From: an uncultured delta proteobacterium
GTDB lineage: Bacteria > Myxococcota_A > Polyangia > Polyangiales > Polyangiaceae
NCBI GenBank assembly: GCA_963841435.1
Contig: CAWJCS010000005.1
Coordinates: forward strand, 896,001 to 960,000
Length of the DNA stretch: 64,000 nucleotides
Direction of reading: 5' to 3'
A program made the translations under genes and the position numbers. How positions within the stretch are numbered: the first letter of the stretch is position 1; every line of letters starts with the position of its first letter. Positions 5,021-27,907 of this stretch are shown in pieces. The notes beneath the pieces are model-generated. The model was given only the letters and a program-made list of their open reading frames with translations, ran no database searches and was not told the origin of the DNA.

Positions 5021-5125
5021 CAGGGGTCCGGCCCGCAGGCTGATCGCCCGAAGATCGCGCAACTACCGATTACGTCAAGGCCCGCGGCGTGCCCTGCCTC
5101 GGCGGAACGCGTTTGGAACCCCTAT
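5021..5125 (+). repeat. Mini-element copy A (oriIS-like 3' end)
   Basis: Starts CAGGGGTCCGGCCCGCAGGCTG, ends GCGTTTGGAACCCCTAT; the 3' part is repeated with a 67-bp period at 5135-5192. Confidence 0.7.
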
Positions 5126-5307
5126 CCCCCGACGGATTACGTCCATTTCTGCGGCGGGCTCTGCCTCGGCGGAACGCGTTTGGAACCCCTACCCCCCTAC
5201 GTCTCCGCCAACGGCTTTTGGACCTATTGGCAAACGGGACGCCTGGGCGCGTCGTGCGCCGTCAGTTGCCGACGTTCACCTTCGCAATGACGGCCGTGTA
5301 GTAGTCG

Positions 5308-5706
5308 TCAATCGAAGGGATCACGCCGTCGTCCGGCAGCGTCAGCTCCCACACGACAAGTGCAACCTGGACCCGTCCCACTTCTCGCCTCGCACTCAAC
5401 GTCGGCGTCTGCCTTGTTTCCACCCTGGCGTCCATCGGCACCAAGACCAACGACTCGCGGATGCCCTTCCACAAACTGACAGACCATGAGCCTCCCCCAT
5501 GGGTCGCGTACGGACGACGGTTCAGGGGGTGGCCATACGGAGCAGTCGTGTGGGGGGATTGAGCCAAGTGTGACACTGCAAGCGCGACCGGCCCGTGAGA
5601 CCGCAAGCTCAATACGATCCTCTTCGTACCCTCTCCAGCCAAGGTAGGCTGCGACGGCAACGGTGGCGGCAGATCCTATACCAAAGAGCCAACGGCGCGC
5701 GGCCAC
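5308..5706 (-). CDS. Small membrane-anchored protein with GspG-like C-terminal motif; possible immunity protein
   Basis: N-terminal TM segment; RDPWGR...LGADGRQGG..ADAD motif; directly follows a toxin-like fragment. Confidence 0.55.
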   Translation of the reverse strand: MAARRWLFGIGSAATVAVAAYLGWRGYEEDRIELAVSRAGRACSVTLGSIPPHDCSVWPPPEPSSVRDPWGRLMVCQFVEGHPRVVGLGADGRQGGNKADADVECEARSGTGPGCTCRVGADAAGRRRDPFD

Positions 5707-5709
5707 ATA

Positions 5710-5918
5710 TCACCAAAAATTCCAAAGTGCGTCTTCGAGCGACTGCCACGGATCGTTTTGAATTCGTTGCAGCTCATCTACTGCGCCGTCGGTAAATGTC
5801 CGACAGTCGTTGATCCCCAAAAGATAAGGAATCCGATCGGATGCCTGATTGACATCATACGTTTCATGGATCCACTCTTCCAACTGCCTGTCCTCGTCGG
5901 GAGTAGAAGCGTAGCATT
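5710..5918 (-). pseudogene. C-terminal fragment of a putative papain-like (polymorphic toxin-type) domain
   Basis: Manual translation ECYASTPDEDRQLEEWIHETY...PYLLGINDCRTFTD...WNFW*; low GC; no start; cut at the mini-element. Confidence 0.4.
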
Positions 5919-5920
5919 CT

Positions 5921-6012
5921 CAGCGGTCCGGCCCGCAGGCTGGATCGCATATTCGGCGATCCGTAGAGTCCAGCACGCCATCCACCGCGACGGATGCGTT
6001 TGCTTCGCCTAT
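5921..6012 (+). repeat. Mini-element copy B
   Basis: 92 bp, 90/92 identical to the reverse complement of 17605-17696; hairpins GGATCGC/GCGATCC and CATCC/GGATG. Confidence 0.85.
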
Positions 6013-6247
6013 TGTTAGCGCGCAGCGCAGCTGAGGGACGGGAGCGGGATCTCGCGCAAGCTGCGTGAGGGAGATCCGGCGGGCGGGGTGAGATCCCCCT
6101 TCGCCGAGGTTGCGCGTTTCTGGCCGGGATCGCGCTTGGCGTCGTAGAGGGCCGCGCCGGAGAAGACGCCCGGGCTTGGTGCTCGGACAAAAAGTTGGCG
6201 GGCGGTGTTCGAAGCACCGTTGTCCCGCCGAGCTCCGCCGAAGGCAG

Positions 6248-6865
6248 TTGAAGACGATCCAGCGAAGCGACACACGCATCATCCAATCCGCGATCAACGT
6301 CAAGTTTTGGGCAGAGGCACCGCCGTCCTGCTCGGCGGTGCGCCCGGCGAGCTGCCCCGGTTGCGGGGCTGCGAGCCGGGAGCCCGGCCGCGCTGTTGCG
6401 ATCGTGGGCCACGGTTTCCGGAGCCGTGACGTCGAGGGACCGGCGGGGCCGGGCGAGGCTCCGGCGTCGACGACCGTGGTCGCGCGGCGTTACCGCTGTC
6501 GCGTGTGCGGGGCGGTGCTGGTCGTCGTGCCGCGGGGGGTGGGCCGGGCACTGCGGTACACGCTCGACGCCATCGGCTATGCGCTTGCCCTCTGGGGGTA
6601 TGCGCGGACGACGGCGGAGCGGACGCGCAGGGCGGTGAGCACGGCGAAGGCGCGGGGCATCTCGGCGCCGGAGAAGTGGTCCTCGCTTCGACGGTGGACG
6701 GTGTCGGCCGCGAGGATCTTCGGCTCCGGGACGCCCAGCGCGGGCGGCACGCTGAGGGACCGGGCAGCGCGGCTCGCCTCGTGGCTCGCATCGCAGGCGC
6801 CGCTGCCGACGGGAGCGGTGCCCAAGGATGCCTTCTTCGGCGGCCGCTTCGTCCACGCACGATGA
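6248..6865 (+). CDS. Transposon-associated zinc-finger protein (DUF6431-like)
   Basis: CPGCG...GHG...RRYRCRVCG...VVP; start uncertain (TTG). Confidence 0.7.
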   Translation: MKTIQRSDTRIIQSAINVKFWAEAPPSCSAVRPASCPGCGAASREPGRAVAIVGHGFRSRDVEGPAGPGEAPASTTVVARRYRCRVCGAVLVVVPRGVGRALRYTLDAIGYALALWGYARTTAERTRRAVSTAKARGISAPEKWSSLRRWTVSAARIFGSGTPSAGGTLRDRAARLASWLASQAPLPTGAVPKDAFFGGRFVHAR

Positions 6866-6992
6866 GCGATGGCACCGAGAGCTCGAGCCCCGCCCAAGCC
6901 GCATCCACCAGATCCGGCGTCTGCCGAGCAGGCTCGTTGGATGCGAGCGATCCGCTCCGCGCGGCCCACTCCGGGCGCGCAGGAGAAAAACG

Positions 6993-8369
6993 ATGGATCG
7001 CATCATTCAAGACGGAGAAAAGCTCGGCCCGAAGGACCACGCCGAGCGCGTTGCCCTGTTCCGCGTGCAGGTCATCGGACCGCTGCTCGCGCGCGACTTT
7101 CAGGACCACGGCGAGCTGGCGGACGAGCTCCGCGCGCTCGCGGCGAAGTGGCATCGTCCGCCGGAGTCAGCGCTCGGGCGGCAGTACTCGGCGCCGACGA
7201 TCGAGCGCTGGTACTACGAGTACAAGCGCGGCGGACTCGATGCGCTCCGGCCGCGACGACGCTCCGACACGGGCCACGCCCGCGAGCTGACCGAGGAGCA
7301 GCGTGCGCTCCTGCTCGACATCCGACGGGAGTACCCCCGGGCGACGGCTGCACTGATCCTGCGGACGCTGGAGCTCGACGGGCGCCTCGAGAAGGGCGCC
7401 GTGAGCCCCTCCACGCTGCGTCGGCTGTATCAGGAGCACGGCCTCGACCGGGTGAAAGCCGATGCTGCCGACGGGCGCGTCCGGCTCCGCTGGCAGGCCG
7501 ATCGCGCCGATGCGCTCTGGCACTCCGACGTGTGCCACGGCCCGGCGATGAAGCTCGGCGAGCGGTCGGTGCCGCTGCGCATCCACGCACTGCTCGACGA
7601 CCACAGCCGGTACATCGTCGCGATCCAGGCGGCGACGACGGAGCGGGAGGTCGAGATGCTCGCATTGATGGTGAAAGCGATGCGAGACACGGGCCGGCGT
7701 CCCGGCGCGCTCTACCTCGACAACGGCTCGACCTACCGGGGCGAAGTGCTTCAGACGCTCTGCGCAAGGCTCGGCGTCGGGCTGCTCCACGCCGAGGCCG
7801 AAGATCCGCAGGCTCGCGGCAAGATGGAGCGCTTTTGGCGGACGCTGCGCCAGGGCTGCCTCGACCACATCGGCACGCCTGGCAGCTTGCAGGACGTGCA
7901 GGTGCGATTGCTCGCTTTCCTCGGCAAGCACTATCACGTCTCACCTCACGCCTCGCTGATGGGCAAGACGCCCGCCCACGTGTATGAGACCGCGCCGCGC
8001 GACGCGAAGGCGGTCACGGAAGCGGAGCTCGGCATCGCGCTCACCGTCCGCGGTCGCCGCCGCGTCCGCACCGACGGCACGCTCGACATCGGCGGCGTGA
8101 CCTTCGAGACGCGGGCGGGTTTCCTCGCGGGCAAGCTCGTTACCGTCGCCCGCTCCCTGCTCGACGTTTCCACGCATCCGTGGATCGAGCACGAGGACGA
8201 GCGCTACCTGCTCGGCCCGGTCAATCCCGAGGAGAACGCCCGTCGAAAGAAAGAAGGGCCGACCGCCAACCGTCCGCAGCAAGGCCTCGACGTGCCTTTC
8301 GATCCGCCCGGCGCCCTGCTCGACGCGCTGCTCAAACGCGGGCCCGACGGCGACGGAGGTGCCCAATGA
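6993..8369 (+). CDS. DDE integrase/transposase (IS481-like, Mu-type C-terminus)
   Basis: LWHSDVCHG, LLDDHSR, LYLDNGSTY, PQARGKMERFWRT. Confidence 0.93.
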   Translation: MDRIIQDGEKLGPKDHAERVALFRVQVIGPLLARDFQDHGELADELRALAAKWHRPPESALGRQYSAPTIERWYYEYKRGGLDALRPRRRSDTGHARELTEEQRALLLDIRREYPRATAALILRTLELDGRLEKGAVSPSTLRRLYQEHGLDRVKADAADGRVRLRWQADRADALWHSDVCHGPAMKLGERSVPLRIHALLDDHSRYIVAIQAATTEREVEMLALMVKAMRDTGRRPGALYLDNGSTYRGEVLQTLCARLGVGLLHAEAEDPQARGKMERFWRTLRQGCLDHIGTPGSLQDVQVRLLAFLGKHYHVSPHASLMGKTPAHVYETAPRDAKAVTEAELGIALTVRGRRRVRTDGTLDIGGVTFETRAGFLAGKLVTVARSLLDVSTHPWIEHEDERYLLGPVNPEENARRKKEGPTANRPQQGLDVPFDPPGALLDALLKRGPDGDGGAQ

Positions 8370-9181
8370 GCCGCTTTCTCTCGCACTTTGGCCTGCGCGA
8401 AGCGCCTTTCACCAAGGAGATCGCCGACGGCGAGCTCTGGGTGCCCTCCTCGCGAAAAGCCACCGTGGAGACTCTGGTCGAGACGTGTCGCGACCGCGGA
8501 CACGCCGTGCTCGCCGGAGAGCCCGGCGTCGGCAAGACGTGTGTCCTGCGCGCCCTCCGCCATCGGCTGCCGCAGGACGGCTTCCGGCTGACGTACTGCC
8601 ACAACGTGACGCTCGGCCGGCGGGACTTCTACCGCCACGTCTGTCTCGCGCTCGGCCTCTCGCCGAGCGCCACGGCGGCGGCCGTCTTCTTCGCCATCAG
8701 CACCCACATCGAACAACTCGGCGCCGAGAAGGTCCATCCGGTCCTGCTCATCGACGAGGCCCACCTGCTCCACCAGGACGTGCTCGACCATCTGCACATC
8801 CTGGCCAACTACGAGTGGGACTCAAAGCCCTTGCTCTCACTCGTCCTTGTCGGCCTGCCCGAGACCCGGCAGCGGCTTACCCTCGCCAAAAACCGCTCGC
8901 TCTGGTCCCGCATCCACACCCGCCTCTCCCTCGGCGAGGCCACTGCGGGCGACACCGCCGAGTACATCGCATTCCGTTTGAAACGAGCCGGCTCGGAGCG
9001 TGAGCTCTTCTCCTCCGACGCCGTCGCCCTCATCCACGAAGAAACCCACGGCCGCCTCCGCGACATCGACCGTGTCGCCACTGATGCCCTCAAGCTCGGC
9101 GCGCGCAGAAAGCTCCGCATCGTCAACCGCGAGCTCGTCGTCCGCGTCTTCGGCGAACAGGAGGCCGCCACCGAAGACTGA
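8366..9181 (+). CDS. ExeA-family AAA ATPase (transposition helper)
   Basis: HFGLREAPF, GEPGVGKT Walker A, LLIDEAH Walker B, LVLVGLPE. Confidence 0.9.
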   Translation: MSRFLSHFGLREAPFTKEIADGELWVPSSRKATVETLVETCRDRGHAVLAGEPGVGKTCVLRALRHRLPQDGFRLTYCHNVTLGRRDFYRHVCLALGLSPSATAAAVFFAISTHIEQLGAEKVHPVLLIDEAHLLHQDVLDHLHILANYEWDSKPLLSLVLVGLPETRQRLTLAKNRSLWSRIHTRLSLGEATAGDTAEYIAFRLKRAGSERELFSSDAVALIHEETHGRLRDIDRVATDALKLGARRKLRIVNRELVVRVFGEQEAATED

Positions 9182-9340
9182 TCGCACCTCGGTCCCGTTA
9201 CACGATGGCCATCGCTGGCCTGGCGCCATCCCGCCGGGCTACGCGATGGCCATCCCGCTTTGTGACCGCCGCCGCGCGTCTCCGGCGATGCCCATCACCC
9301 AGCCCGCGCCCATCCCCATCAGGCAGCTTGCGCGGCAACA

Positions 9341-10417
9341 GATCCGAGCACGGGTGAGCGCGTGCTGGCGGAGCTTTTCGTGGCGGTGCTCGGCGCGTCG
9401 AACTTGACCTACGCGGAGGCGACGGCGAGCCAGAAAGTCGAGGACTTCGTGAGCGCACACGTCCGAGCGCTCACGTACATCGGCGGCGTGCCGACGATGA
9501 TTGTGCCGGACTGTCTGAAGTCGGCGGTGACGGTGCCGTGCCGGTACGAGCCGGGCATCCAACGCACCTACGCCGAGTTTGCGCGCCACTACGGGACGGC
9601 GGTGGTGCCGGCGCGGCCGTACAAGGCGCGCGACAAGGCGAAGGTGGAGGTCGCCGTGCAGATCGCGCAGCGATGGATCCTCGCGCGTCTTCGCAACGAG
9701 ACCTTCTTCTCGCTGGAGGCGCTGAATGCTCGCGTGCGCGTGCTCCTGGATGAGCTCAACGCGCGGCCGATGAAGAAGCTCGGAGGCATCAGCCGTCGCG
9801 AGCTGTTTGAGCGCGTCGAACGTGGAGCGTTGGGTGCGCTGCCGAGCGACCCGTACGAGTGCGCCGAGTGGCTCGAGCGGACAGTGAACACGGACTACCA
9901 CGTGGAGGTCGACAAGCACTGGTACTCGGTGCCGTACGACCTCGTCCACGAACCGGTTTGGGCACGATTTACGGCCATGACGGTCGAGATCCTCCACAAC
10001 AACGGTCGCGTCGCGTCCCACGTGCGGAGTTGGGTCCCCTACGCGCACACGACCAATCCGGCGCACATGCCCGAGGGCCATCGTCGCCACGCGGCCGGCG
10101 CGGAGGGAGTGCTGGCCTGGGCGGCGACGGTTGGGCCGATGGCGGTTGCGATGGTGCGACGGTTGCTCGACGCGAACCCGGTCCGAGAGCAGGGCTGGCG
10201 GTCCGCGCGTGGGCTTCAGCGAATCGGTGAAAAGTACGGCCCGGTGCGAACCGAGCTCGCGTGTGCGCGGGCGCTGCGTTTCGGCGCTCGCTCGTACAAG
10301 CCGGTCGCGAACATCCTCGCGCTCGGCCGCGAGAGCGCCGGGGCGCTCGAGGACGAGCCCGAGGAACGGATTGCGATCATGCACGAGAACGTGCGTGGCC
10401 CTGACTACTACCATTGA
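9341..10417 (+). pseudogene. istA: IS21 transposase IstA, 5'-truncated
   Basis: [52 protein letters not shown]-terminus missing at the transposon end. Confidence 0.9.
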
Positions 10418-10431
10418 AGAAAGGAAACCGA

Positions 10432-11175
10432 ATGCTTCACGAACCCACCATCGAAAAACTCCATGAGCTGCGCCTGGCCATCATGGCCGAGGCCTGGCAA
10501 CAGCAACAAAAGGACGCGAAAATCGGGGCGCTGAGCTTCGACGAGCGCTTCACGCTGATCGTCGATGCCGAGCACCAGGCTCGCGACAACCGCCGTCTCA
10601 CGCGCCTGCTGAAAGACGCGCAGCTGCGGATCCCGCAGGCGTGTGTCGAGGACGTCGCCAGCTCGCCGGCTCGTGGCCTCGAAAAGGCGATGCTGCGCCA
10701 GCTCGCGTCCTGCACCTGGGTCACCGAGCACCTGAACGTCCTCATCACCGGCGGAACCGGCGTCGGCAAGAGCTACCTCGCCTGCGCGCTCGGACAGAGC
10801 GCGTGTCGCAAGGCGCTTCGGGTGACCTACCGCCGCGTCCCGCGCCTGCTCGACGAGCTCGCGCTCGCCCGCGCCGAGGGCTCCCACGCGCGGCTGCTCG
10901 CGAAGCTCGCGAAGTTTGACGTGCTCGTGCTCGACGACTGGGGTCTCGGTGCGCCGAAGGACTCGCAGCGTCACGACCTGCTCGAGGTGATCGAGGACCG
11001 CTACGGCCGCGTCTCGACTGTCGTCACCAGCCAGCTACCCGTCGGAAAGTGGCACGAGTGGATCGGAGACCCGACAATGGCAGACGCTATTTTGGATCGC
11101 CTCGTGAACAACGCTTACAAGGTCAACCTGAAAGGACCATCCCGCCGGAAACTCGAGACTGAACCCTCCCACTGA
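10432..11175 (+). CDS. istB: IS21 helper ATPase IstB
   Basis: GGTGVGKSYLACALG, LVLDDWG, ADAILDRLV; IS21 right end with repeated (T/C)CACGATG motifs ends ...CGCA at 11271. Confidence 0.95.
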   Translation: MLHEPTIEKLHELRLAIMAEAWQQQQKDAKIGALSFDERFTLIVDAEHQARDNRRLTRLLKDAQLRIPQACVEDVASSPARGLEKAMLRQLASCTWVTEHLNVLITGGTGVGKSYLACALGQSACRKALRVTYRRVPRLLDELALARAEGSHARLLAKLAKFDVLVLDDWGLGAPKDSQRHDLLEVIEDRYGRVSTVVTSQLPVGKWHEWIGDPTMADAILDRLVNNAYKVNLKGPSRRKLETEPSH

Positions 11176-11271
11176 CCGCCGACCGCCTGCGTCGCTCCGC
11201 TCCGATCACGATGCCCGATGCGAGTGATCACGATGCGCCGAAACGGCTGTCCACGATGGGCGAAATCCGCA

Positions 11272-12382
11272 ATAGGAGACGATTTTCACGCGAAGCGCGT
11301 GCTTTCCCTCGCTAACGGCGTGGTGGGTACCATCCACGCCGCCGCGTTGGCGGTTCACTTTATCGGGGAGGGTTTGGCGCTTGCGGAGGGACTCGACCCA
11401 AAGCACGCGATCAAACAGGTCAACCGTTTGCTCAGCAATCCGGCGATTTCCGTCGAGAGGTTCTTCGCCCGATGGGTGCCGTTCGTCGTTGCCGAGCGGA
11501 AAGCGCTCCGGGTAGCGCTGGACTGGACGGAGTTCGATCGCGATGGGCAGATCACCATCGCGCTCTACCTGCTGACGAGGCACGGGCGGGCCACCCCGTT
11601 GCTCTGGAGGACCGTCAGGAAGAGCGACCTGAAGGAGCGACAGGGGGAATACGAAGATGCTATCGTTGAACAGCTTCACAGTCTTCTCGGCGCCGATGTG
11701 CGAGTGACGCTGCTGGCCGATCGAGGCTTTGGCGACCAGGCGCGGTACGAGCATCTCGACCGGCTCGGCTTCAGCTTCGTCATTCGTTTTCGCGAGAACA
11801 TCCTGGTTGAGAGCGCCGACGGCGATTCGAAGACCGCCGCAGAATGGGTTCCGAGCAACGGCCGGCCCAAGCACCTGCGAAAAGCCAGAGTGACTGCTGA
11901 CCGCGCCAACGTGGGCGCCGTCGTGTGCGTGAAATCGGCCGGAATGGCTCAGGCCTGGTGCCTCGCCACCAACCGTACCGACCTTTCGGCGACCGAGGTC
12001 GTCGAGTTGTACGGCCGCCGCTTCACGATCGAGGAGACGTTCCGCGACCAGAAAGATCTGCGCTTTGGCATGGGGCTGTCGAGCACGCACATCAAGGACC
12101 CGGCACGGCGCGATCGCCTGCTCATGCTCGCAGCCTTTGCACAGGGGCTCCTCACGCTGCTCGGCGCTGCGAGCGAAGCGTCCGGACTCGATCGCTACTT
12201 GAAGGCCAATACTGTCAAAAAGCGCACTCACTCCCTGTTTCGTCAGGGTAGCTATTACTATGCCGCGCTCCCCAACATGCGCGATGATCGCCTGTTGCCG
12301 CTCATGGACGCCTTCGGCAAGATCGTCGCCGAGCATCAGGTCTCGCGCGAACTTCTCGGTGTCATATGAGGGGATGCCTCAG
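11272..12382 (+). mobile_element. IS4-family (IS10-like) element, 5'-truncated by IS21; transposase ends at 12369
   Basis: VALDWT, LLADRGFG, YGRRFTIEETFRDQK (YREK-type); right end reverse complement CTGAGGCATCCCCT. Confidence 0.88.
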
Positions 12383-12412
12383 GAGTTGCCCCTGTCAAAC
12401 CGGACACGTGGT

Positions 12413-13271
12413 TTAGGGTAATTGGGCGCGGCGGAATTGCCGCGGAGAAAGCATGTTGAGGCCGCTGTGGGGGTGGTTCTCGTTGTAGTCGGCAAACCAA
12501 GCGGGAAGGGCGGCGAGGACGGAGCGCGCCGAGGCGACGTCGCCGAGGTAGACGTAGTCGCGTTTGAAGGTCTTCACGAAGGCCTCCGACATGCCGTTGG
12601 ACTCGGGCGAGTACGCGGGCGTGTTGCGCACGAGCAGGCCGGACAGAGCACCAAACGCCCGCGTCTCGTGCGCCGTATAGGGCGGTCCGTTATCGGTGAG
12701 CCACTCGACGGGGTGCGCCGTGTGCGTGCCTCCAAAGCGCGCCTCGACCGACTGCGCCATCAAATCACGGATGTCCGTGCCGTCGAGGTGCCGGTCGGAC
12801 GCGACCCAGGCGATAGCCTCGCGGTCGCAGCAATCGAGAGCGAAGGCGACGTGGACGCGCTCGCCGTTCCAGCAGCGCACCTCGAAGCTGTCGCTGCACC
12901 ACCGCAGGTCGCTCGCCAGCGTGATCACCTTGCCGTCGTGCCGGCGCTCGGGATGGATGCCGTACTTTGCCAGCAGCAACTGCGCCCGCTTCATGAGCCG
13001 GTAAACGCGCTTGTGGTTGATGCGATTGGCGGGCTCTTGACGGTTCAATCGGGCCGTGACGCGGCGGTAGCCGTACGACGGCCGCTCGCGCACCACCGCG
13101 CGGATGCGGTCGAGCACGTCGTCGTCTCCGTCGCAGTCGTAGCCGGTCCGTTCTCGCGGAGCCGTCCGGGCACTGCGGCTCAGGTGCGAGCGTGAGATGC
13201 CGAGGGCGTCGGCCACCGGCTTCACTTTTCGCCCTCGTCGGATGAGCTCCCGCGCGACAACAGTTTTTTTT
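12413..13271 (-). CDS. IS3 OrfB integrase core, expressed via -1 frameshift
   Basis: YGYRRV, WCSDSFE, LDCCDRE, WLTDNG, SPESNGMSEAFVKTFKRDY. Confidence 0.92.
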
Positions 13272-13608
13272 CGCGGGCGACCTCGATGGCCTCTTCGAGG
13301 ATCTCCACTTGCATCGTCTTCTTGCCGAGAGCCCGCTCGAGCTCCTTGATGCGCGCCTTGAGCTTCTTCACCTCGCTCTCGGGCACGACCTTCTCGTTCG
13401 ACTTCAGGCCCTTCTTCGTCGCGTCGTCCATGGCTCGCTTCCATTGGAACAACATGCTGGGCGCGAGGCCATAGCGTCGTGCAACCTCCGAGACTGAGTT
13501 CCCGGTGCGGGCCGCCTCGTCCAGAAATGCCCGCTTCTGCTCGGCCGTGAATCTACGCCGCCTGCCTGGCTCGACTGCCTGGACGCTGATCAATGCTGCT
13601 GCCGTCAT
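13222..13608 (-). CDS. IS3 OrfA
   Basis: RRRRFTAEQK..SVSEVARRYGL..LFQWKR HTH; IKELERALGKKTMQVEIL. Confidence 0.92.
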   Translation of the reverse strand: MTAAALISVQAVEPGRRRRFTAEQKRAFLDEAARTGNSVSEVARRYGLAPSMLFQWKRAMDDATKKGLKSNEKVVPESEVKKLKARIKELERALGKKTMQVEILEEAIEVAREKKLLSRGSSSDEGEK

Positions 13609-14913: not shown

Positions 14914-16071
<1,158 letters not shown>

Positions 16072-16083: not shown

Positions 16084-17181
16084 CTACTGCTCACCCAAGA
16101 TCGCTTTGATATCCGGTCGCGCCCGCCAGGCCTCGTAGTCGGGCAACCAATCTTCGAGCGCCCGCGCCTCCGTCCAGAGCGCATCGATCTCCTTCATGTA
16201 GCAGTCGACGATCTCTGGCTTGACCTCGAAGCCTCCCGACGTGTTGGTCGCTTTGGGTGAAGCTCGTGGTGCCGTGAAGCCGTATGGCTTGGCGGTTTGA
16301 GCCCGCTTATCGAGCGTGTCGATGAGGTACCAACGACCCTGAAGGTCTCGATCGAGGAGCCTCACCTCGAAGTTGCGGTCAACGCCAGCGCGCCGCGCTT
16401 CCTCACGAAGCCAGAGCAGCCCCTCCACCGTATCGTTGCCGAACGCATAGAGCACGTCTCTCGAACGCCCGACCATGCGCGCCACGTGAATTGCATCGCC
16501 GTGAACGAAATCGAAGACGAGAAACCTTACGCGTACACCACGGGTCAGCCGGTCGAGAAAGATCTTCCGGCCGATCGAGGCCGTGATGTAGAAGTCCACG
16601 GCCGCCAACGTAATGTCCGTCAACGCTTGCTTCGCGTAGTCGAGAAACATGAGGATGAATTCATGTCCTCGTTCGAACTCGTAGGATTCGTTCCACGGGG
16701 GGTCACGCGGGGCAGGGCCACCCTCGAGATAGGCGATGGCACGCCTCAGGTAGTCGGCCAGTTGCTCGGGGCGGTGTTGACGGAGTTCGTGGATGCGATC
16801 TCGAATTCGCTTCGGCACGACCTCGAATGCGGCCTCGAAGTCGAGGTAGCCGCGTGACTGGCGCGAGGCAAGCACCCAGTCGCTCGATTCCGTCTGCACG
16901 AAACCATGCAGACGGTAGACCAGCGGCGCAGCGGTGTCCTTGCTCAGCTTTTCGCTTTTGCCGCCCTTCCCCTGCAGCTCCCGCGACAGGGCGTGAGCCG
17001 GTCCCGAGTTGCGTCTGCGCTGAACCGAAAGCTCGAGCTCTGCGCTCAATACATAGCTCGCGTCGATCAGCTTGAAGACGCGACGGTGAAGAGCTTCATA
17101 GAAGTGTCTGCTTCCTTCGTCTCTCGGCACGATTTCCAGTGCAATACAGAGTTTGCAAAGTCGCTCGTTGATCGGATACAT
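16084..17181 (-). CDS. Hypothetical protein; C-terminal domain resembles PLD-like/DUF5919 regulatory domains
   Basis: RGVRVRFLVFD...NFEVRLLD...WYLID pattern; apparently co-transcribed with the M20 gene. Confidence 0.55.
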   Translation of the reverse strand: MYPINERLCKLCIALEIVPRDEGSRHFYEALHRRVFKLIDASYVLSAELELSVQRRRNSGPAHALSRELQGKGGKSEKLSKDTAAPLVYRLHGFVQTESSDWVLASRQSRGYLDFEAAFEVVPKRIRDRIHELRQHRPEQLADYLRRAIAYLEGGPAPRDPPWNESYEFERGHEFILMFLDYAKQALTDITLAAVDFYITASIGRKIFLDRLTRGVRVRFLVFDFVHGDAIHVARMVGRSRDVLYAFGNDTVEGLLWLREEARRAGVDRNFEVRLLDRDLQGRWYLIDTLDKRAQTAKPYGFTAPRASPKATNTSGGFEVKPEIVDCYMKEIDALWTEARALEDWLPDYEAWRARPDIKAILGEQ

Positions 17182-17604
17182 GGTGACCCTGCGCGTCCGG
17201 AGGACACCCTATCACGACGTGTGTTCTGTCCGTTCGTGTTCTCTTTCTGCACGCGTTCTACATGAATGCTCGGCTTTCCGTTCCGGAAGCTCTCTTGGGG
17301 CGCGTGGCGCGGTGCCTCCGCGAGCGTATGGCGCTGCTTGCGCCCCCCAGCTTCGCTAGGCGGCGCGCCCTTCGTTAGCTCACGCCGGCGCTTCGCGGCG
17401 CCGGTGGCAACGGAGTGAAGGTATTCTCCACGCTCAGAAATGCGCGCCCCTCGTGCATGAACGAGCGGGCGACGTTGAGCGTGAACCCGTCCGTAGCGGC
17501 GGCGTCGAAGAACCTCGCTATCCAGGCGAACTCTGCGCCGAGATGGCCAGGCAGATTGCAGCTAGCGCCAGCTCCGGTGCGGGCTCAGCCGTCACTCCGC
17601 GGGG

Positions 17605-17696
17605 ATAGGCGAAGCAAACGCATCCGTCGCGGTGGATGGCGTGCTGGACTTTACGGATCGCCGAAGATGCGATCCAGCCTGCGGGCCGGACCGCTG
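17605..17696 (-). repeat. Mini-element copy C
   Basis: Inverted copy of 5921-6012 with 2 substitutions. Confidence 0.85.
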
Positions 17697-20551: not shown

Positions 20552-21100
20552 TTAGTCTTGAGCCCAGACGAGCTTGAAGTCGAGGCCTGTCAGGTCGTGC
20601 TCGCGAACCAGGTCGACGAACATATCCGTGAAGTACGTAATCCCCATCGGGTGACTCCTCACCTTGAACAGATGTAGGCCCTTGAGGCAGTCGGCGCGGA
20701 AAACGGGTTTGCGGACTCGCAGGATTCGATTCCCAGGCTCCACGGAACGAAGGAGGTCCGAACGCTCCTCGTCGAGCGCGTCGACGAGCCGGGTGACATT
20801 GAAAACCCACACTGAATCGCTATCGCTCTGCAGCGGGAGAATCTCACCATAGTCCTGCACGACTCTCCCAAGCTGCTTGAGCGCCCGTGGCCGCAACAGC
20901 AGATCACCCGGTCCAGCAGGCATGTCGGTGTGCGCGCGAGGGCGACCTCGCTCGTCAACGGTGACTGTTCGGACCCTGACAGGTTCCCAGCCTTGCGCCC
21001 GCGAGCTACCATCAAACCTCAGTGTTTGATGGCCTTCATCATCCTCGGGCACGATGCAGTCGGTGTCGTTCCAAGAGACGCTTTGAAACACCTTAATCAC
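20552..21100 (-). CDS. Immunity protein, Imm11/DUF1629-like
   Basis: GEILPL...VFNVTRLVDALDEERS...LFKV...YFTDMFVDLVREHDLTGLDF; follows the AHH nuclease. Confidence 0.8.
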   Translation of the reverse strand: MIKVFQSVSWNDTDCIVPEDDEGHQTLRFDGSSRAQGWEPVRVRTVTVDERGRPRAHTDMPAGPGDLLLRPRALKQLGRVVQDYGEILPLQSDSDSVWVFNVTRLVDALDEERSDLLRSVEPGNRILRVRKPVFRADCLKGLHLFKVRSHPMGITYFTDMFVDLVREHDLTGLDFKLVWAQD

Positions 21101-22221
21101 GGAAAGCCTCCAGCCCTCAACGAGTACCCGATATCATCGAGAATTTGCAACGCTTCAGCGCGACTGCCCGCGGCACTCAACGCCTGACTCACGGCCCGTC
21201 CGTATGCGGCCCCGAAGGTCTGGTAGTGAGCTTCCGGACTCAGAAAGAGGCCGTTGCGCGCGTCGTTGATGCTGATTCCGAACCTGCTTAGCACATTGCG
21301 CGCACCAGCTGCGGCGGGCTCCGCTCCGGGAACGATATGGTGCGCGTGCCAACCTGGAGGACGAGTCTGGCCGGCTGCTTCCAGAGCTCGCCCGAGCCGC
21401 CGTGAACTCGGCCTCTCCGGAAAATCCGCCTCCGCGGCTGAACGCGGCGGTTTTGGCGGAACTGCCGCTCCACCCCCCGACGCCTCCGCCAGGTACTCAT
21501 TGGACTTCTGAACCGTTTCTTCTTCGGTGCTCTCCGTTTGGCTCGCGTTGGAAGGGATCAAGACGATCGAGACACCCGCCCGATCGGCCCCAAGAACCGC
21601 GCTACTCCCGGCCCCATCCCGAGCGGCAAGCGCGGTTGGACGAATGGGCCAACGAAGCTCACCAGCGGAACGCCAACGTCGGATCCGTCTTCCCCATATT
21701 GTTCGCCTTCTGCGGGCAGTCCGGGTGTCGCTGTTGGAAGCACAAGTGGAGGGGTCGCTTCAGACAACGGAAAGTCCGAAGGGGGCTCGGCCGGGAAAAA
21801 CTCCGCGAGCGGGTCGGCAACGGGGGTCTGGTTCGCATCGGAAGACGTCCCCCCACCGAAGTCGCTCTGGTGAACGGTTAGACCCAAATCAGCTGGCTCG
21901 CCGTTCATCGTCGGCTCGCCCTCCAGCCCCGTCGGATCCACCCACGCGAACGGATTGTTCCACGCATACGAATACCGATTCCAAGCCTGGCTAAAGCCCG
22001 GTGCCTGCACGGTCGGATCCGGCGACGTGAACCTTGCGATGCGCGCATCGTACAAGCGCGCTCCCATGTTGACGAGGCCGGTCTCCGGATCGTGCTCGTG
22101 GCCGGTGTAGCCGCGGGTGACGCGGCGCACTGCGGGGTTTTGGGATTGCCAGCTCGGGTTGTCGACGGTGCCGAAGGGGCCGAAGCGCTGCTCGTGCAGG
22201 AGGGTGCCGGCTTGGTCGGTG
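21097..22221 (-). pseudogene. rhs: Orphan Rhs module 1: core end plus AHH (HNH-fold) nuclease tip
   Basis: About 295 bp nearly identical to the main Rhs core; 1-bp frameshift near 21580; AHHIVP...GISINDARNGLFL...H. Confidence 0.85.
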
Positions 22222-22387
22222 CTTGGATGCTCCCCCGTTGTGGGTGCGGCGTGGGTGCGCCCGTCGTGCTCGCTTCGCTGCGCGCGCCGGGGGCCCTCTT
22301 GCCTGTGCTCGCCCGGCTGCCCTGAACGGTGATGCACGGATGGCCGGGCTGCGCGCGGGCGAGGGTCCCGGGCGCGACGGGCGGCGT
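22222..22387. repeat. Rhs-junction hairpin element, copy 2
   Basis: Same junction GGTCGGTG|CTTGGATG as at 19513/19514; long imperfect stem. Confidence 0.8.
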
Positions 22388-22496
22388 CGAGAGGGAAGGG
22401 CCGTGCAAGCGCTCAGGCAGTCCCTTCCGGACCGTAGCTAACGTAGCTACAGTCCTACAAATGCAGCACTTTTCGGGGGGCAGGCCAGTCAATCCC

Positions 22497-22841: not shown

Positions 22842-23230
22842 CTACCGAACTTCCTCGCGTGTTCGACTGCATCCGAGATTGATCGGAACAGCGTCGCCCA
22901 GGCGATGAGTTCGATTTGTTCCGAGGTAAAACGGCCGGCGTGAAAAACAACTTCGTCCAGGACTCGAGACACAAAGACTTGTGCTGGCCAATGCGATATC
23001 GGATAGACGGTCTCACCTTCATACCGCGCGGAGAGAACCAGGCGTTCAATCTCCCGGTTCCCGAGGCCGAGCTGTTGCCCACTCAGGGCCGGCCCGATCT
23101 CAACGAGGAGATGATCGTGCTGCCCCGAGTCGCGGAGAGATTTGAGCACCCAACAGCGACGAGGGGTGCTGAGTGGCTCGTACTCTCCAGCAGAGCTCAG
23201 GAAGAAATCGGGCTGACGCTGCAAAGACAA
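22838..23230 (-). CDS. Putative cognate immunity protein of the main Rhs
   Basis: Small ORF starting about 10 bp downstream of the Rhs stop. Confidence 0.7.
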   Translation of the reverse strand: MSLQRQPDFFLSSAGEYEPLSTPRRCWVLKSLRDSGQHDHLLVEIGPALSGQQLGLGNREIERLVLSARYEGETVYPISHWPAQVFVSRVLDEVVFHAGRFTSEQIELIAWATLFRSISDAVEHARKFGS

Positions 23231-23239
23231 GTGCTTTCC

Positions 23240-25963
23240 TCAGAAGGGTGGGTTGACTCCCGAAACTCGAAGTAGTTCCACTTGCGCGGCGGGGTTTGGG
23301 ACCACCACCTCCGGTATCGTGCCGCCCACATTGCCCGGGCCGGGTAGCGCCCGAGCGAAGGATACGCCTTCCGTGTTTATCATCCTACCCTCGGCAACAA
23401 ATGTCCCCGCATTCTCGGGGAACAACCCGGCGGCCTGTCGGTAGTTCGGCACGCTGCCGGGGTTGACGGTTGTCCAGGACTGACCCATGCCGCGCGCTTG
23501 CCCACCAAACACTCTATATACCCTTGCCCCAGACGCCACAGCAGCCGACTCGAAGGCCGCGCCTTCGCGAATTATGCGCGCCAAGCGCAGTGCACTGCCG
23601 CCGAGGGGTAATAGCGCCTCAAGTGGTATGGACTTCAGTGGTTTTTCGCCGGACACGAGATCCGCGGCCCGCTCCCGCCACCGCCGCTCACCCGGCGTTT
23701 CCGCGCCCGCCTGATTGAGGATGTTCGATGTGCGCGCGAGAGCCCGCTTGCCCGCCGTCGGTCCGCACGACGAGACGCTCGGATCGCACGAGGTATCGGC
23801 GAGCGCCTGATTGAGGATGCCCTGCACGTACTGCTCTTGGGCGGTCGGGGCGTGGGCCTCCGAGGGTGGCGGGAGCACGAGGGGAGGGGTTGCCTCGGAT
23901 AACGGAAAGTCCGAAGGGGGCTCCGCCGGGAAAAACTCTGAAAGCGGGTCAGGTGCCGGCGTGGTGTTAGCGTCGGGCCCGGTTGGTGAGGCGGATATCG
24001 GTCCGAACGGACCTTCCTCCATGCCTCCGGCCGCGTCGTTGTAGCTCCAATTATCGAGCCCCGTCGGATCCACCCAAGCGAACGGATTGTTCCACGCATA
24101 CGAATACCGATTCCAAGCCTGGCTAAAGCCCGGTGCCTGCACGGTCGGATCCGGCGACGTGAACCTTGCGATGCGCGCATCGTACAAGCGCGCTCCCATG
24201 TTGACGAGGCCGGTCTCCGGATCGTGCTCGTGGCCGGTGTAGCCGCGGGTGACGCGGCGCACTGCGGGGTTTTGGGATTGCCAGCTCGGGTTGTTGACGG
24301 TGCCGAAGGGGCCGAAGCGCTGCTCGTGCAGGAGGGTGCCGGCTTGGTCGGTGAAGGCCACCGGGCTGCCGAGTTGGTCGGGGTGGAGGTAGACGCGGCT
24401 GAGCTCGGCGTCGTTGGCGCCGCGGACGATTTCGAGGATTTCGCCGGTCGGGGAGAAGATGCGGTACTTCTGCTCGATGGCGCCGCCCCCGGGGGAGATG
24501 CTTCGCTCGTAGTCGCCCGAGTAGTAGACCGCGCTGCCGTCGGAACGGGCCTTCCTCGAGCGCTCGCCGCTCGACTGGTAGTCGAAGGCGACGTAGCCGT
24601 TGTTGCCGAGGTTGACGCGGGATGGGAGCTGACGGGCGTTGTAGGTGGTTGTTTGCGAGCTCGTCACCACCCCGGCCCCGCTGGCGGTTTGACGGAAGCC
24701 CGTCGGGTACGCGGAGTTGTAGGTGTACTGGGCGCCCCCGGCGCCGTCCGGAGCATGTGCGGGCAGAGCGCCGGGGTTGTTGTAGGTGAATTGCGAGGGT
24801 GAGATGCTGCTCAGCGTGTCGATGTTGCCGTTGGGAAGGTAGTCCGCGTGGAACGACGACGTACCGTTGGTGGTTACGTCCGTGAGACGATCCAGCGTGT
24901 CGGGGCTGAAGGCTTCGAAAACGTCATCAGGGGAGTGCGTGAAGTCATCGCGTTGCGAGAGGTTGCCGTTGGGATCGAAAAGGAATGACATAGCGAGCGC
25001 CAAACCGCCGGCGCCACCGGCAGCGCGATAGGTCTGGACACCCGAGATGTCCCCGGTCAAGGGCCAGTATGATGTGTCGGTATACATGGCACCGACGCTC
25101 TCTCGTTTTGGCCGCTGGCCTTGGTCCGCGTCGAGGAGCTGCCAATACGCCTCCGACAAACCGGGTGACCCGACGGCCTTGAGGTTCCCGCCGTTGTCGT
25201 ATGAGTATTCGACCTGAAATGGGGATGGCCCGCCAGGATAGGTGACCGTCTTCACTTGACCGACCACGTTGTAATCGAACGTGGTGGTCATCGTTTCCGA
25301 CTGGACGGTGTCGGTCACTGTTTTCAAGAAGCCGCGATTCAAGAAGCTCGTCGGTGCCTCGTAGGTGAAGTCCCGACGCGCGCCATCGTGGCTCGTGGTG
25401 CTGACGAGACGGCCGATTCCGTTGGGCCCACCAGCGTCGTCGTAGGTGTACGTTTCGTCTTGAGCCTCGAGGCTCGACGACACTCTATCGAGTCTGCCGA
25501 CCACGTCGTAGTGGTGCTTTCGGATTTCCGTACCCTGGCTTCCCACCAGGTAGCTGTCGAGCTCTCCCCAGGGCGTGTACAGATAGCGCTCGACGCCGCG
25601 ATCCGGGCCTTCAGCTCGGGTTAGGCGACCATACCGATCGAAAAGGACGCTGGTCGTCGAGTCGACCGCGCTGACGCTGCTGAAGGTGCCGAATGGTCCA
25701 GCATTGAACGTCACCCAGTTCCCGGCTGGATCGCGTGACGCCACCACGTTGCCACGGTGATCGCGAACCGCAATGCTCGTATTTCCATTCGGATTCTTGG
25801 CGGACGAAAACCAGATGTAGTTGTTCGGCAACGAATTCAGGCCGAGTCCCTCCAGGGAAACGTTGGCGCGCGACGCCCTGGCGAATTCGATCGTAGAGCT
25901 GTTGGCCAACGTGATCTTGCGCAGCGCGCGGTCGTCGTCGTACGCATACTGAATGATGCCCAC
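23240..25963 (-). CDS. rhs: Rhs/YD-repeat polymorphic toxin, probably 5'-truncated
   Basis: YD repeats, HPDQLGS, GYTGHEHD, ARLYD, NPFAWVDPTG, then a variable C-terminus; N-terminus abuts an unrelated fragment. Confidence 0.9.
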   Translation of the reverse strand: MGIIQYAYDDDRALRKITLANSSTIEFARASRANVSLEGLGLNSLPNNYIWFSSAKNPNGNTSIAVRDHRGNVVASRDPAGNWVTFNAGPFGTFSSVSAVDSTTSVLFDRYGRLTRAEGPDRGVERYLYTPWGELDSYLVGSQGTEIRKHHYDVVGRLDRVSSSLEAQDETYTYDDAGGPNGIGRLVSTTSHDGARRDFTYEAPTSFLNRGFLKTVTDTVQSETMTTTFDYNVVGQVKTVTYPGGPSPFQVEYSYDNGGNLKAVGSPGLSEAYWQLLDADQGQRPKRESVGAMYTDTSYWPLTGDISGVQTYRAAGGAGGLALAMSFLFDPNGNLSQRDDFTHSPDDVFEAFSPDTLDRLTDVTTNGTSSFHADYLPNGNIDTLSSISPSQFTYNNPGALPAHAPDGAGGAQYTYNSAYPTGFRQTASGAGVVTSSQTTTYNARQLPSRVNLGNNGYVAFDYQSSGERSRKARSDGSAVYYSGDYERSISPGGGAIEQKYRIFSPTGEILEIVRGANDAELSRVYLHPDQLGSPVAFTDQAGTLLHEQRFGPFGTVNNPSWQSQNPAVRRVTRGYTGHEHDPETGLVNMGARLYDARIARFTSPDPTVQAPGFSQAWNRYSYAWNNPFAWVDPTGLDNWSYNDAAGGMEEGPFGPISASPTGPDANTTPAPDPLSEFFPAEPPSDFPLSEATPPLVLPPPSEAHAPTAQEQYVQGILNQALADTSCDPSVSSCGPTAGKRALARTSNILNQAGAETPGERRWRERAADLVSGEKPLKSIPLEALLPLGGSALRLARIIREGAAFESAAVASGARVYRVFGGQARGMGQSWTTVNPGSVPNYRQAAGLFPENAGTFVAEGRMINTEGVSFARALPGPGNVGGTIPEVVVPNPAAQVELLRVSGVNPPF

Positions 25964-26195
25964 GTCGCGTTCGCCCCCACCGCCGTCGAGCGAGTCGGCG
26001 TGACCTCGGGCGACTCACCGCTCGGCAACCTCGCAGCCACGGCGGTCCGCCACGCCGCGCTCGCTGATCTTTCGGTGATCGGCGCGTCGTCGCTGCGATT
26101 CGACCTGCCACCCGGTCTCGTCGAGCCCGAGACGCTCGGTCGCGTCCTGCCGTTCGCCGATCCCGTCGTCCTTTCCCGCGACATCTGCGCCTTCA
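25958..26195 (+). pseudogene. Fragment of a 5'-nucleotidase C-terminal domain
   Basis: DSPLGNLAATAVR..ADLSVIGASSLRFDLPPG...VLPFAD. Confidence 0.65.
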
Positions 26196-26268
26196 TCCCG
26201 CGAGCATACCTCGACTACTCCGAAGGTACGAAGAGCGCGTTCCGAGACGGTGTAAGCTCACGGTTGGC

Positions 26269-27216
26269 ATGGCACTCACGGCGCACCCCAGCACTAGAGC
26301 CACGCTCGAGGAGGCGGTTTGGATCGATCTCTTCAACGCGACGGACGAAGAGCGCAAGCGGGTCGAAGCCGTCATCAAGCAGACCCTGCCCACGCAGGCG
26401 GACATCCAAGAGATCGAAACCTCGAGTCGCGTGTACGTCGAGGGCGCGACGCTCTACCTATCGACGCCCCTGCTCACGGGCGACCAATGCATCACCGACG
26501 GCCCCACGTCGGTCGGCTTCGTGCTCACCCCCTCGCTGCTCGTTACCCAGCGGTTCGCCGCCATCCAAGCGTTCGAGGCGGTGGCGCGCCGCTACGACAA
26601 AGTCGAAAAGCCGAGTGCGAGCGACGCGTTCTTGAAGCTGCTCGAGGTCGTCGTCGACCACGCGGCCGACGCCCTCGAGCACGCAGGGGCCGAGCTCGAA
26701 ACCATCTCGCATCGCGCCTTCGGCGGCGAGCCATCGACGCGCGACAAGCATGCGGAGACGGCCAACGAGCTGCGCGGCGCGCTGCGCCGTCTCGGCAGCC
26801 TGGGCGACGGCATCTCGCACCTGCGCGACTCGCTACTCGGCATCAGTCGTATCGCCGCCTTCGTGCACGAGACCGCACACGAAACGCACTTCAGCGGCGC
26901 ACTTCCTCGCCTCAAGGCGATTCGCAGCGACATCAGCTCCCTCAACGACTACCAAGCTCACCTGTCCGCCAAAATCCAATTCGTACTCGACGCCACGCTG
27001 GGTTTCATCAGCATTCAACAGAACGAGATCGTCAAGACCCTCACCATCGTCTCCGTCGTCGGCGTTCCCCCGGTGCTCATCGCAGGCATCTACGGGATGA
27101 ACTTCAAGTTCATGCCCGAGCTCACTTGGCACATCGGCTATCCGTTCGCGCTCGCGCTCATCGTGCTCAGCACCCTCCTGCCGCTCGGCTGGCTCAAATG
27201 GCGCGGCTGGATGTGA
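26269..27216 (+). CDS. corA: CorA-family Mg2+ transporter
   Basis: WIDL, EIETSSR, QQNEIVK, IYGMNF signature and two C-terminal TM segments. Confidence 0.95.
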   Translation: MALTAHPSTRATLEEAVWIDLFNATDEERKRVEAVIKQTLPTQADIQEIETSSRVYVEGATLYLSTPLLTGDQCITDGPTSVGFVLTPSLLVTQRFAAIQAFEAVARRYDKVEKPSASDAFLKLLEVVVDHAADALEHAGAELETISHRAFGGEPSTRDKHAETANELRGALRRLGSLGDGISHLRDSLLGISRIAAFVHETAHETHFSGALPRLKAIRSDISSLNDYQAHLSAKIQFVLDATLGFISIQQNEIVKTLTIVSVVGVPPVLIAGIYGMNFKFMPELTWHIGYPFALALIVLSTLLPLGWLKWRGWM

Positions 27217-27240
27217 CTCGGCGGGCGAGAGGGCCGAGAG

Positions 27241-27810
27241 TCAGTCGGTGCCGTCCAGCTGCCGCACCAGGCGTTCGACGCGCAGCATCGCTCGTAGGTT
27301 GCCGGTGCGATGCGCATGGTCCATCGCCGCGAAAAGGTGCGTTTGCTCGACATACAAGCGTTGGGGTTCGCGCTCGAGCAGCGAGACGTAGTGCTCGAAG
27401 ACGCGGTCGTGGGAAATGCGGGCGCGGGGCTTCACGACGTGCCGTACACGGCGTGCAAGGTGAAGCGTCCCGTGGCGGGCTCTTGGAGCAGGCGAAACGC
27501 GCGCAGGCGCTCGAGCGCGCGGCCGGCGTTCGTCGTCACGCGCGCAAGCCTCGCCAGCGAGGCCAGATCGACGTGGTCGCCTTCCACGTGCGCGAGCACG
27601 CCGAGCATGCGGCGACTAGCGGGCTCGAGCCGCCGCCAGGCCCAGTCGAAAAGCAGTGCTACCTCGGGGAGATCGTCCTCGTGCTCGATCGCCACGACGC
27701 GCTCGACGCCCTTTTTGCGAAGCGCGGCACCGAGCCCCGCGCAGGTTTCCGCGCCCGACGCGACGATGCCGTCGGCGATGTCGAGCGCGAGCGGATTGAA
27801 GCGCAGCAGC
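27241..27810 (-). pseudogene. C-terminal fragment of an NB-ARC/STAND-like protein
   Basis: LLRFNPLALDIA...WAWRRL...GRFTLHAV; frameshift near 27447; 5' part replaced by the mini-element. Confidence 0.6.
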
Positions 27811-27907
27811 CAGCGGCCCCGGCCCGCCGACTGGATCGCATTAGACTCGATCGGTCAACTGCGTGGGCACGTCGGCTCGCTCGTCGAATCCGCTTTGCGC
27901 TTCCTAT
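27811..27907 (+). repeat. Mini-element copy D (diverged)
   Basis: CAGCGGCCCCGGCCCGCCGACTGGATCGCAT ... CGCTTTGCGCTTCCTAT, 97 bp. Confidence 0.7.

Follow-up and report, generated by a model that had tools for sequence, protein, structure and literature searches.

What are the repeats of about 100 nt that recur in this stretch of a Polyangiaceae genome, and why do they lie beside cut genes? The window analysed here is the whole stretch of 64,000 nt, corresponding to G000:C5:896001-960000, where G000 is the source genome (7.78 Mb, 68.7% G+C, six contigs) and C5 one of its contigs. A first-pass annotation described four copies of the repeat in the window (copies A–D) and read them as non-autonomous rolling-circle elements, related to IS91 and ISCR, that capture gene fragments. 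Most of this description holds. The units, 92–105 nt long, are probably non-autonomous solo right-end (oriIS) modules of a rolling-circle element of the IS91/ISCR family, referred to here as type M. The capture of gene fragments is over-read, as no two copies share the 5′ flanking DNA that transduction would be expected to leave as its trace.

The sequence bears out the positions of all four copies (Table 1). Their likeness is far above chance, as judged from nhmmer and covariance-model E values, and the 90/92 identity between copies B and C is correct. Each of them does carry the 5′ motif CAGSGGYCCGGCCCGC..CTG(G)ATCGC and the 3′ end TTTG-N5-CCTAT. The conserved 3′ end extends 4 nt past CCTAT in 12 of 16 tabulated copies (CCTATCCCC, or CCTATCCGC in the D type); these bases are CCCC or CCGC, and copy B (CCTAT-TGTT) is among the exceptions. 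Both edges are sharp, with CAG at the 5′ side and CCTAT(+CCSC) at the 3′ side, and the upstream DNA diverges from the very base preceding CAG. Among the copies found by nhmmer and the covariance model, which have the CAG start and the CCTAT end in common, the flanks are unrelated. As first reported, target duplications are lacking (0/16 copies show one at any fixed offset) and so are terminal inverted repeats, the two ends of the unit being unlike each other. The base preceding CAG is C or T in 15 of the 16 tabulated copies. A hand tally of flanks that includes the copies of relatives gives a pyrimidine at this position in 25 of 26.

A subterminal palindrome (GCGGTCCGGCC/GGCTGGATCGC) begins 2 nt from CAG and comprises 11 pairs, including two G-T pairs. 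Its pairing is retained in about 88–92% of cells in an alignment of 23 distinct copies fitted to the model. The predicted hairpin was upheld in part: folding beats shuffled sequences for the B/C type (z −2.2) and does not for A or D. Palindrome columns 9/45 and 15/30 (alignment A2) hold G-T in 17–20 of the 23 copies. Such positions are A-C mismatches on the opposite strand and could bear on which strand is active.

The units form a diverged family within the genome. An nhmmer profile of the four copies retrieves 13 full-length copies (E 2.5e-23 to 1e-4), and a covariance model built from 13 copies yields 17 matches at E<=1e-3, which fall into at least five subfamilies. Inspection of weaker nhmmer matches added two more diverged full copies, C5:1487200(-) and C2:49523(-), and a 5′-truncated copy at C5:865573. 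Stubs consisting of the 5′ part only are present at C3:11774, C2:844956, and C2:736763. A loose motif scan (TT[TC]G-N4-6-CCTA[TC]) gave 234 matches, most of them due to chance, and served only to spot two extra copies. The B type has six copies (92–96 nt, 91.8–97.9% mutual identity), the D type three (97 nt), the A type four (103–105 nt, 69–82% identical), and the E, F, and G types one each; identity between types is 47–66%. Copy D is 97.9% identical to C5:1482396. Ten copies cluster in C5:836-924 kb and three in C5:1482-1487 kb. Direct pairs of units, 0.4–1.9 kb apart, are formed by A and B in the window, by C5:1482396/1483226, by 14882/15386 in the same-genus genome G036, and by two units in L063, a locus of a Caulobacterales metagenome-assembled genome (MAG). 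The 5′-only stub at C2:844956-845014(+) and a full F-type unit at C2:849240-849326(-) lie inverted to each other, 4.3 kb apart.

The link to IS91-family transposases is provided by two loci, C2:19139(-) in the source genome and C153:11163(+) in the same-genus genome G013. They carry units of different subfamilies after a common junction, ..TTTGGATTA(G/C)CT↓CAG (the arrow marks the junction), which is also present at C5:1487200(-). The 400 nt upstream of the units are homologous between the two loci and encode at both the C-terminus of an IS91-type transposase, ending 65–68 nt ahead of CAG. With this C-terminus as query, relatives turn up in 15 of the 46 further genomes of the genus that were searched; several lie in open frames of 509–625 amino acids. 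Two of them, at loci L042 (578 amino acids) and L048 (566 amino acids), contain the Zn_Tnp_IS91 (PF14319) and Y2_Tnp (PF04986) domains, with E values of 4e-17/2e-23 and 6e-16/9e-25, respectively. Their top NCBIfam match is the ISCR clade Ia model, at 303 bits with a cut-off of 925. The type-M transposase shares 33.5% identity with the ISCR1 transposase over 91% of its length.

The region downstream of type-M genes contains the unit. Past the stop codon, ..TTTGGA(A/T)TNNCT↓CA(G/A/C).. is present in 10 of 11 loci, and a terminal TTTG-N5-CCTA(T/G)(C/T)CC lies within 260 nt of the stop in 8 of 11. The region is sequentially composed of the stop codon, about 80 nt, ..TTTGGATTAxCT↓CAGCGG.., about 100 nt, and ..TTTG-N5-CCTAKCCCC. 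In full-length elements, the module that follows ..TTTGGATTA(C/G)CT reads CAGCGG-palindrome..TTACGTCAA..GCGTTTG-N5-CCTAT(CCCC). Homology between independent type-M copies ends just past CCTAGTCCC or CCTTATCCCC (L059 versus L060, L055 versus L058). The best full-length match of a model built solely from the solo copies of the source genome falls on the terminal module in seven loci; these matches are weak (E 0.026–0.19 in 54 kb) and their positions agree, and the match to the terminal module in G013 is strong (E 1.7e-9). From the junction, the downstream ends, and the model positions, it follows that the unit is the terminal module of type M, which begins with the internal CAG and extends as far as the right end.

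The end itself is of the IS91/ISCR kind. The 3′ ends of ISCR1 (..GGTTTATACTTCCTATACC), ISVsa3 (..GCGTTTATTCTTCCTATAC), and an E. coli IS91-family element (..GCGTTTGAACTTCCTATAC) contain GG(T/C)GTTT(A/G)NNCTTCCTATAC, a core common to the unit, in which it reads GCGTTTG-N5-CCTATCC. The bases after CCTAT in most copies are CCCC, CCGC, or CCTC, which differ from the target of IS91/IS801/IS1294, GTTC/CTTG. The CCCC may belong to the element, because it is missing from two loci paralogous to 3′ flanks. Taken as a derivative, the unit displays these features of the IS91/ISCR family: a cognate transposase with Zn_Tnp_IS91 and Y2 domains, the oriIS core, and an absence of inverted repeats and duplications. 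Its 5′ end also has a terIS-type feature, a subterminal palindrome next to the predicted cleavage site. The stretch from the type-M stop codon to TTTGGATTACT (module 1) gives a weak 5.4 bits with the unit model in a 113-nt search; when it is aligned to the model at this score, the internal T↓CAGC falls on the terminal CCTAT↓CCCC. This likeness of module 1 to the unit is suggestive at most.

The oriIS relationship proposed in the first-pass annotation is thereby supported and on firmer ground: intact elements of the same genus carry a homologous 3′ module, and the oriIS consensus fits the ends that were fetched. That annotation had named unrelated 3′ ends in the IS91 elements of this lineage as the observation that would speak against it, and the homology found favours it. 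Its description of a non-autonomous rolling-circle derivative also stands, as the units are gene-less and derive from IS91-family (HUH Y2) elements.

Two studied systems suggest how such a unit could arise. In IS91, according to the available portion of PMC13181058, transposition starts at the right end, 89 bp of terIS and 82 bp of oriIS suffice, and no target duplication is made; an imperfect palindrome lies subterminally in the left end, where cleavage occurs, and termination is error-prone. In IS801, the available portion of Bardaji et al. 2011 (PMC3189936) describes right-end fragments of 229, 360, and 679 nt that transpose, account for 26% of IS801 events, and each begin at a ter-like tetranucleotide, as well as read-through events that carried 290–1431 nt of upstream DNA. 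Fitted to this IS91/IS801 scheme, the unit would possess a fixed, efficient internal stop. A Y2 HUH transposase would nick the right end and displace one strand leftwards. After some 100 nt it would terminate at an internal Y↓CAGC beside the palindrome, instead of at the true left end; this site would mimic an ori-ter circle junction and equally the left end (CAGA + palindrome) of an IS91-like element resident in the genome. The product of about 100 nt would retain both the start and the stop signal, and a transposase in trans could move it again. Retained signals and mobility in trans would explain the sharp edges, the lack of duplications and inverted repeats, and the six scattered B-type copies (92–98% identical). 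Where the nicks fall, which strand is active, and which enzyme acts are inferred, as is the donor of each copy, be it a full-length element or another unit.

Several observations weigh against this account. No intact type-M transposase gene was found in the genome, only one remnant (C2:19219-19686), which leaves present-day mobility in this genome unexplained; cross-mobilisation by the intact transposases of the resident type-R element (C4:551215, C5:366132) is a guess. For most full-length elements, the terminal module matches the units of this genome weakly, at <=17.9 bits, and the strong links are those of G013 and C2:19139. The true left end of type M is poorly defined by comparison of loci, which makes the internal palindrome no more than a candidate for the terIS of type M. 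The flanks of A, C, and D are not contiguous, which simple insertion of a mini-circle would not predict. No empty site was found for any copy, and C2:13514 and C5:14294, which are paralogous to 3′ flanks, lack the 5′ flank and the CCCC. Units occur in three of 36 other genomes of the genus (G013, G016, and G036) at E<=1e-3 under strict filters. Finally, most genomic IS801 fragments are judged to be products of reorganisation, not of transposition, in the portion of Bardaji et al. available (PMC3189936).

Table 1. Units, adjoining genes, and other features of the window (positions in the window).
Feature	Position	Strand	Remarks
Copy A (A-type unit)	5021-5125 to CCTAT; 5021-5129 with CCCC	+	105 nt; nhmmer E 8.6e-14; covariance model 76.1 bits
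A′ (5′-truncated tandem A-type copy)	5132-5196	+	keeps central GATTACGTC and 3′ end GCGTTTGGAACCCCTACCCCC
Possible third stub (TACGTC..GGCTTTTGGACCTAT)	5198-5227	+	by eye only, no statistics
Copy B (B-type unit)	5921-6012	+	TGTT after CCTAT instead of the usual CCCC; nhmmer E 4.6e-23
Copy C (B-type unit)	17605-17696; 17601-17696 with CCCC	-	nhmmer E 4.2e-23; covariance model 109.2 bits
Copy D (D-type unit)	27811-27907; 27811-27911 with CCGC	+	nhmmer E 1.4e-15; also a covariance-model match
IS66 tnpC, 3′ part	4878-5020	-	antisense to copy A; cut exactly at the CAG of A
69-amino-acid open frame (first annotated as papain-like fragment)	5713-5919	-	lower G+C; own stop; open at the CAG of B
IS66 TnpA accessory protein, N-terminal 79 amino acids	17697-17934	-	cut at the CAG of C; NF047593 E 7e-12, profile 3-51 of 79
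P-loop NTPase, C-terminal half (amino acids 173-361, one frame change)	27244-27809	-	cut at the CAG of D
Type-R IS91-like element, 5′ part	869-1894	-	left end CAGAGTCGAGCGTCTCGAC at 1894; Zn_Tnp_IS91; 3′-truncated
IS66 TnpB/TnpC	2705-4807	+	
rve integrase with AAA_22 ATPase	6828-9181	+	
IS21 with IstB	9362-11175	+	
DDE_Tnp_1 gene	11218-12369	+	
IS3-type pair	12413-13608	-	
Imm11 gene	20552-21100	-	immunity partner of the next row
AHH-family HNH/EndoVII nuclease domain	21097-21561	-	polymorphic-toxin/immunity pair (20552-21561)
tRNA gene	35492-35562	-	only Rfam match in the window

The genes touching the 5′ CAG answer the second part of the question only in part. Each copy had been described as fused to a truncated gene. 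This is correct for A (IS66 tnpC), C (IS66 TnpA), and D (NTPase), and cannot be verified for B, whose flank is without a detectable homologue: none was found in Pfam (E<=1), in NCBIfam, or in 150 other genomes of the order, nor, as weak evidence, among the longer proteins of a set of 5.8 billion. At A, the piece comprises at least the final 143 bp of IS66 tnpC and shows 100% identity to intact sequences at C4:559573-559715 and C2:28597-28739, which run past the break; on its left side, the piece appears by eye to reach the natural IS66 end. At C, no TnpB or TnpC lies on the far side. At D, the match ends at the CAG in over 30 relatives (query 1006-1012), and the intact gene in G007 encodes 361 amino acids. 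The gene is common in the genus, and neither its N-terminal half nor any other copy was found in the source genome. Because the D fragment is the only copy in this genome of a gene common in the genus, a local cut or deletion would explain it no less well than capture. Elsewhere, at least two other copies adjoin open frames in which the gene is perhaps whole (at C5:888460 one for a glycosyltransferase, at C5:1205499 one for a UDP-glycosyltransferase). For 15 copies, 87 open frames that abut the junctions were searched against Pfam, with few matches.

These flanks bear on a rival explanation, gene-capturing one-ended transposition, in which termination at the 5′ side is sometimes missed, upstream donor DNA travels along, and the cut genes are passengers. 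It agrees with the cut genes that touch CAG in A, C, and D and whose remainder is absent on the far side, and the direct pairs of units (A/B, C5:1482396/1483226, G036, and L063) keep the idea alive. Recruitment of upstream DNA is also described for IS801 and IS91 in the available portions of PMC3189936 and PMC13181058. However, no 5′ flank is common to any two copies, and the genome has no donor copy of the unit inside an IS66 or NTPase gene elsewhere. The IS66 piece at A, which extends by eye out to its natural end, resembles an element cut in place, and the D fragment is the sole copy of a widespread gene. The cut genes are equally well explained, and the same data fitted, if DNA was lost or replaced on the ori side, which is the side of A′. 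We therefore regard capture as unlikely, and the same small chance applies to its extension, in which pairs of the form [unit]-X-[unit] are arrays built by events that landed at resident ori junctions. Comparison with relatives adds little: the flanks of D and of C5:1205499 have only diverged gene matches (65–82%) and no bridging site in 46 genomes of the genus. Synteny around CorA and the NTPase gene is not conserved among relatives; therefore, neither insertion of a fragment together with a unit nor a local deletion can be demonstrated. A soil-metagenome run contained 8% of the sampled words and gave contigs of 151–178 nt, none covering D, too scrappy to decide presence or absence. Recombination between copies was considered as a source of the mismatched flanks and rejected, as the missing gene halves do not lie beside the 3′ end of any other copy.

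It is improbable that the units are passive relics, left by deletion or recombination of full-length type-M elements and never moved as units. The abundance of insertion sequence (IS) fragments in the genome, the absence of an intact type-M transposase, the existence of 5′-only stubs (C3:11774, C2:844956, and C2:736763), and the view that Bardaji et al. take of most genomic IS801 fragments, in the portion available (PMC3189936), would all suit such an origin. Random deletions, however, would not share the CAG in at least 20 copies of at least five subfamilies in several genomes. Nor would they account for six B-type copies that are 92–98% identical with flanks unrelated on both sides, or for the pyrimidine at −1 in 25 of 26 copies. 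An origin outside the IS91 family, as an integron attC-like site, a repetitive extragenic palindrome (REP/BIME-type repeat), or a small RNA gene, is suggested by a unit that is short, structured, repeated, and sometimes intergenic. This can be dismissed almost completely: apart from one tRNA, nothing in the window passes an Rfam threshold; the unit does not form a single long palindrome, shares homology with the end of elements that carry a transposase, and lies inside cut genes. An attC site forms an imperfect palindrome over its whole length and has an inverse core site and a core site (RYYYAAC .. GTTRRRY); the unit ends, CAGCGG.. and ..CCTATCCCC, show no end-to-end pairing, and attC was rejected. 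A strict MITE (miniature inverted-repeat transposable element) was also rejected, because terminal inverted repeats and duplications are absent; the likeness of the unit to a MITE ends with its small size and its lack of autonomy.

The genome also houses an IS91-like element of its own. Of 19 matches to the IS91-family Y2_Tnp domain in the genome, most belong to this type R, which is 2194 bp long and present as a full copy at C4:550233-552426. Its left end consists of CAGA and a palindrome (CAGA-GTCGAG..CTCGAC), and its right ends read ..TTTCGCCTAGGCGC or ..GTTCGAATGCCCTTGGCGCC, with TTCGCCTA common to the TTTCGCCTAGGCGC end and the B-type units. Judged by sequence, the ends of type R are laid out like those of the unit (CAG-palindrome .. 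GTTYG-N5-CCT), yet the two are distinct. Copies of type R that are 5′-truncated and keep an intact right end, 99.4–100% identical, lie at C4:544798-545967, C4:561774-562490, C4:568250-568902, and C6:170190-171591. A start-motif rule for these truncations was tried and abandoned: four near-identical ones start with AGAG, TAAA, CCTC, and CACG, with no consensus.

Ends of this kind are repeatedly followed in tandem by a second, 5′-truncated copy. Copy A is followed by A′ (85.7% identical to A over 70 nt; a partial nhmmer match to model positions 41-91, E 0.11), the same arrangement is seen at L059, and the copy at C5:878095 begins five bases past a type-R end. At C2:19139, a 5′-cut Y2 gene, truncated at profile position 44, comes after the unit, and C4:561768 is directly followed by a right-end piece of about 95 nt from a second IS91 type. 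Such tandems suggest a preference for landing at ori junctions that already exist. A further reading, which we hold to be distinctly unlikely, would make the unit an independent 'ori-ter cassette' lineage that lands at IS91-family ori junctions, becomes a new functional end, persists enzyme-less across species and perhaps phyla, and builds [unit]-fragment-[unit] arrays. Under it, landing at ori junctions would be the reason why two tandem ori-like modules stand behind every type-M gene. If true, missed termination combined with ori-junction targeting would be a bacterial counterpart of the gene-fragment shuffling of non-autonomous Helitrons, and a model for the assembly of ISCR gene arrays.

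Outside the source genome, units are few. In G036 (L014/L018), three are found within 2 kb, at C116:14882-14980(+), 15386-15483(+), and 16731-16831(-), the two direct ones being 405 nt apart. Under the same strict filters, the covariance model detects no unit at E<=1e-3 in 24 genomes from the order's other families. One genome from each of 185,579 species was scanned for an exact pattern, and three loci were returned: a clear copy in a Polyangiaceae MAG, a locus in a Collinsella MAG (L061), and L063. The last contains two direct unit-like copies, 1999-2104(-) and 3926-4035(-), with model E values of 0.003–0.004, and the family is probably present in this Caulobacterales MAG too. The pair, about 1.8 kb apart, encloses a single Sll1717-family P-loop ATPase gene split in two frames (profile 2-279 and 288-454), the end of which runs into the second unit.

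The remainder of the window has its own features (Table 1). Positions 1-13608 are a dense graveyard of IS elements, among them the type-R fragment that ends at 1894. A polymorphic-toxin/immunity pair and a tRNA gene lie further downstream.

If the units are solo right ends of type M, they matter in several respects. IS91 and ISCR elements are of interest because faulty termination lets them carry neighbouring genes, and what triggers the stop is poorly understood. This family places a stop signal (Y↓CAGC with a palindrome) about 100 nt from a start signal, and the minimal unit has multiplied and diverged; it is thus a very small candidate substrate for the biochemistry of initiation and termination. 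Miniatures of a right end, until now seen as laboratory events with IS801, are able to found a lasting family of repeats in Myxococcota. For annotators, units of about 100 nt mark the breakpoints of cut genes in IS-rich islands. In a term search, IS91, IS801, HUH, and 'rolling' are absent from a 2024 review of prokaryotic MITEs (PMC10969869). No described family of such units was found in the open-access literature, a scope that excludes subscription journals and ISfinder.

Among known systems, two offer distant parallels. Non-autonomous Helitrons likewise move by a rolling circle, have a short structured end signal, make no duplications, and are reputed carriers of gene fragments. Their transposase is a Rep-helicase and their ends are 5′ TC .. 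CTRR 3′, and the resemblance is one of analogy, not of kinship. The palindrome-associated elements of the IS200/IS605 group share an HUH enzyme, subterminal hairpins, the lack of inverted repeats and duplications, and the existence of miniatures. They depend on a Y1 transposase and have other end sequences, whereas the unit is directly linked to a Y2 IS91-type gene. ISCR1, ISCR2/ISVsa3, and IS91/IS1294 are nearer. The linked transposase has their Zn_Tnp_IS91 and Y2_Tnp domains, with ISCR clade Ia as its top NCBIfam match, and the unit shares their 3′ core, GCGTTTG-N5-CCTAT(A/C)C, and their lack of target duplication. It differs in being gene-less, in having CCCC, CCGC, or CCTC after the ori end instead of GTTC/CTTG, and in its host, Myxococcota.

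The right-end fragments of IS801 in Pseudomonas syringae pv. phaseolicola, as far as the available portion of PMC3189936 describes them, are also 5′-truncated, keep the right end, and start at a ter-like site. They have no inverted repeats, depend on a transposase in trans, and arise alongside events that carry upstream DNA. In contrast to the unit, they measure 229–679 nt, are formed afresh from full-length donors in each event, and have no 5′ palindrome. The unit is 92–105 nt long, has a conserved 5′ palindrome, exists as diverged subfamilies in several genomes of a Polyangiaceae genus, and is present without an intact cognate transposase. The miniature right-end fragments of IS801 are the closest known case, and the principle is the same.

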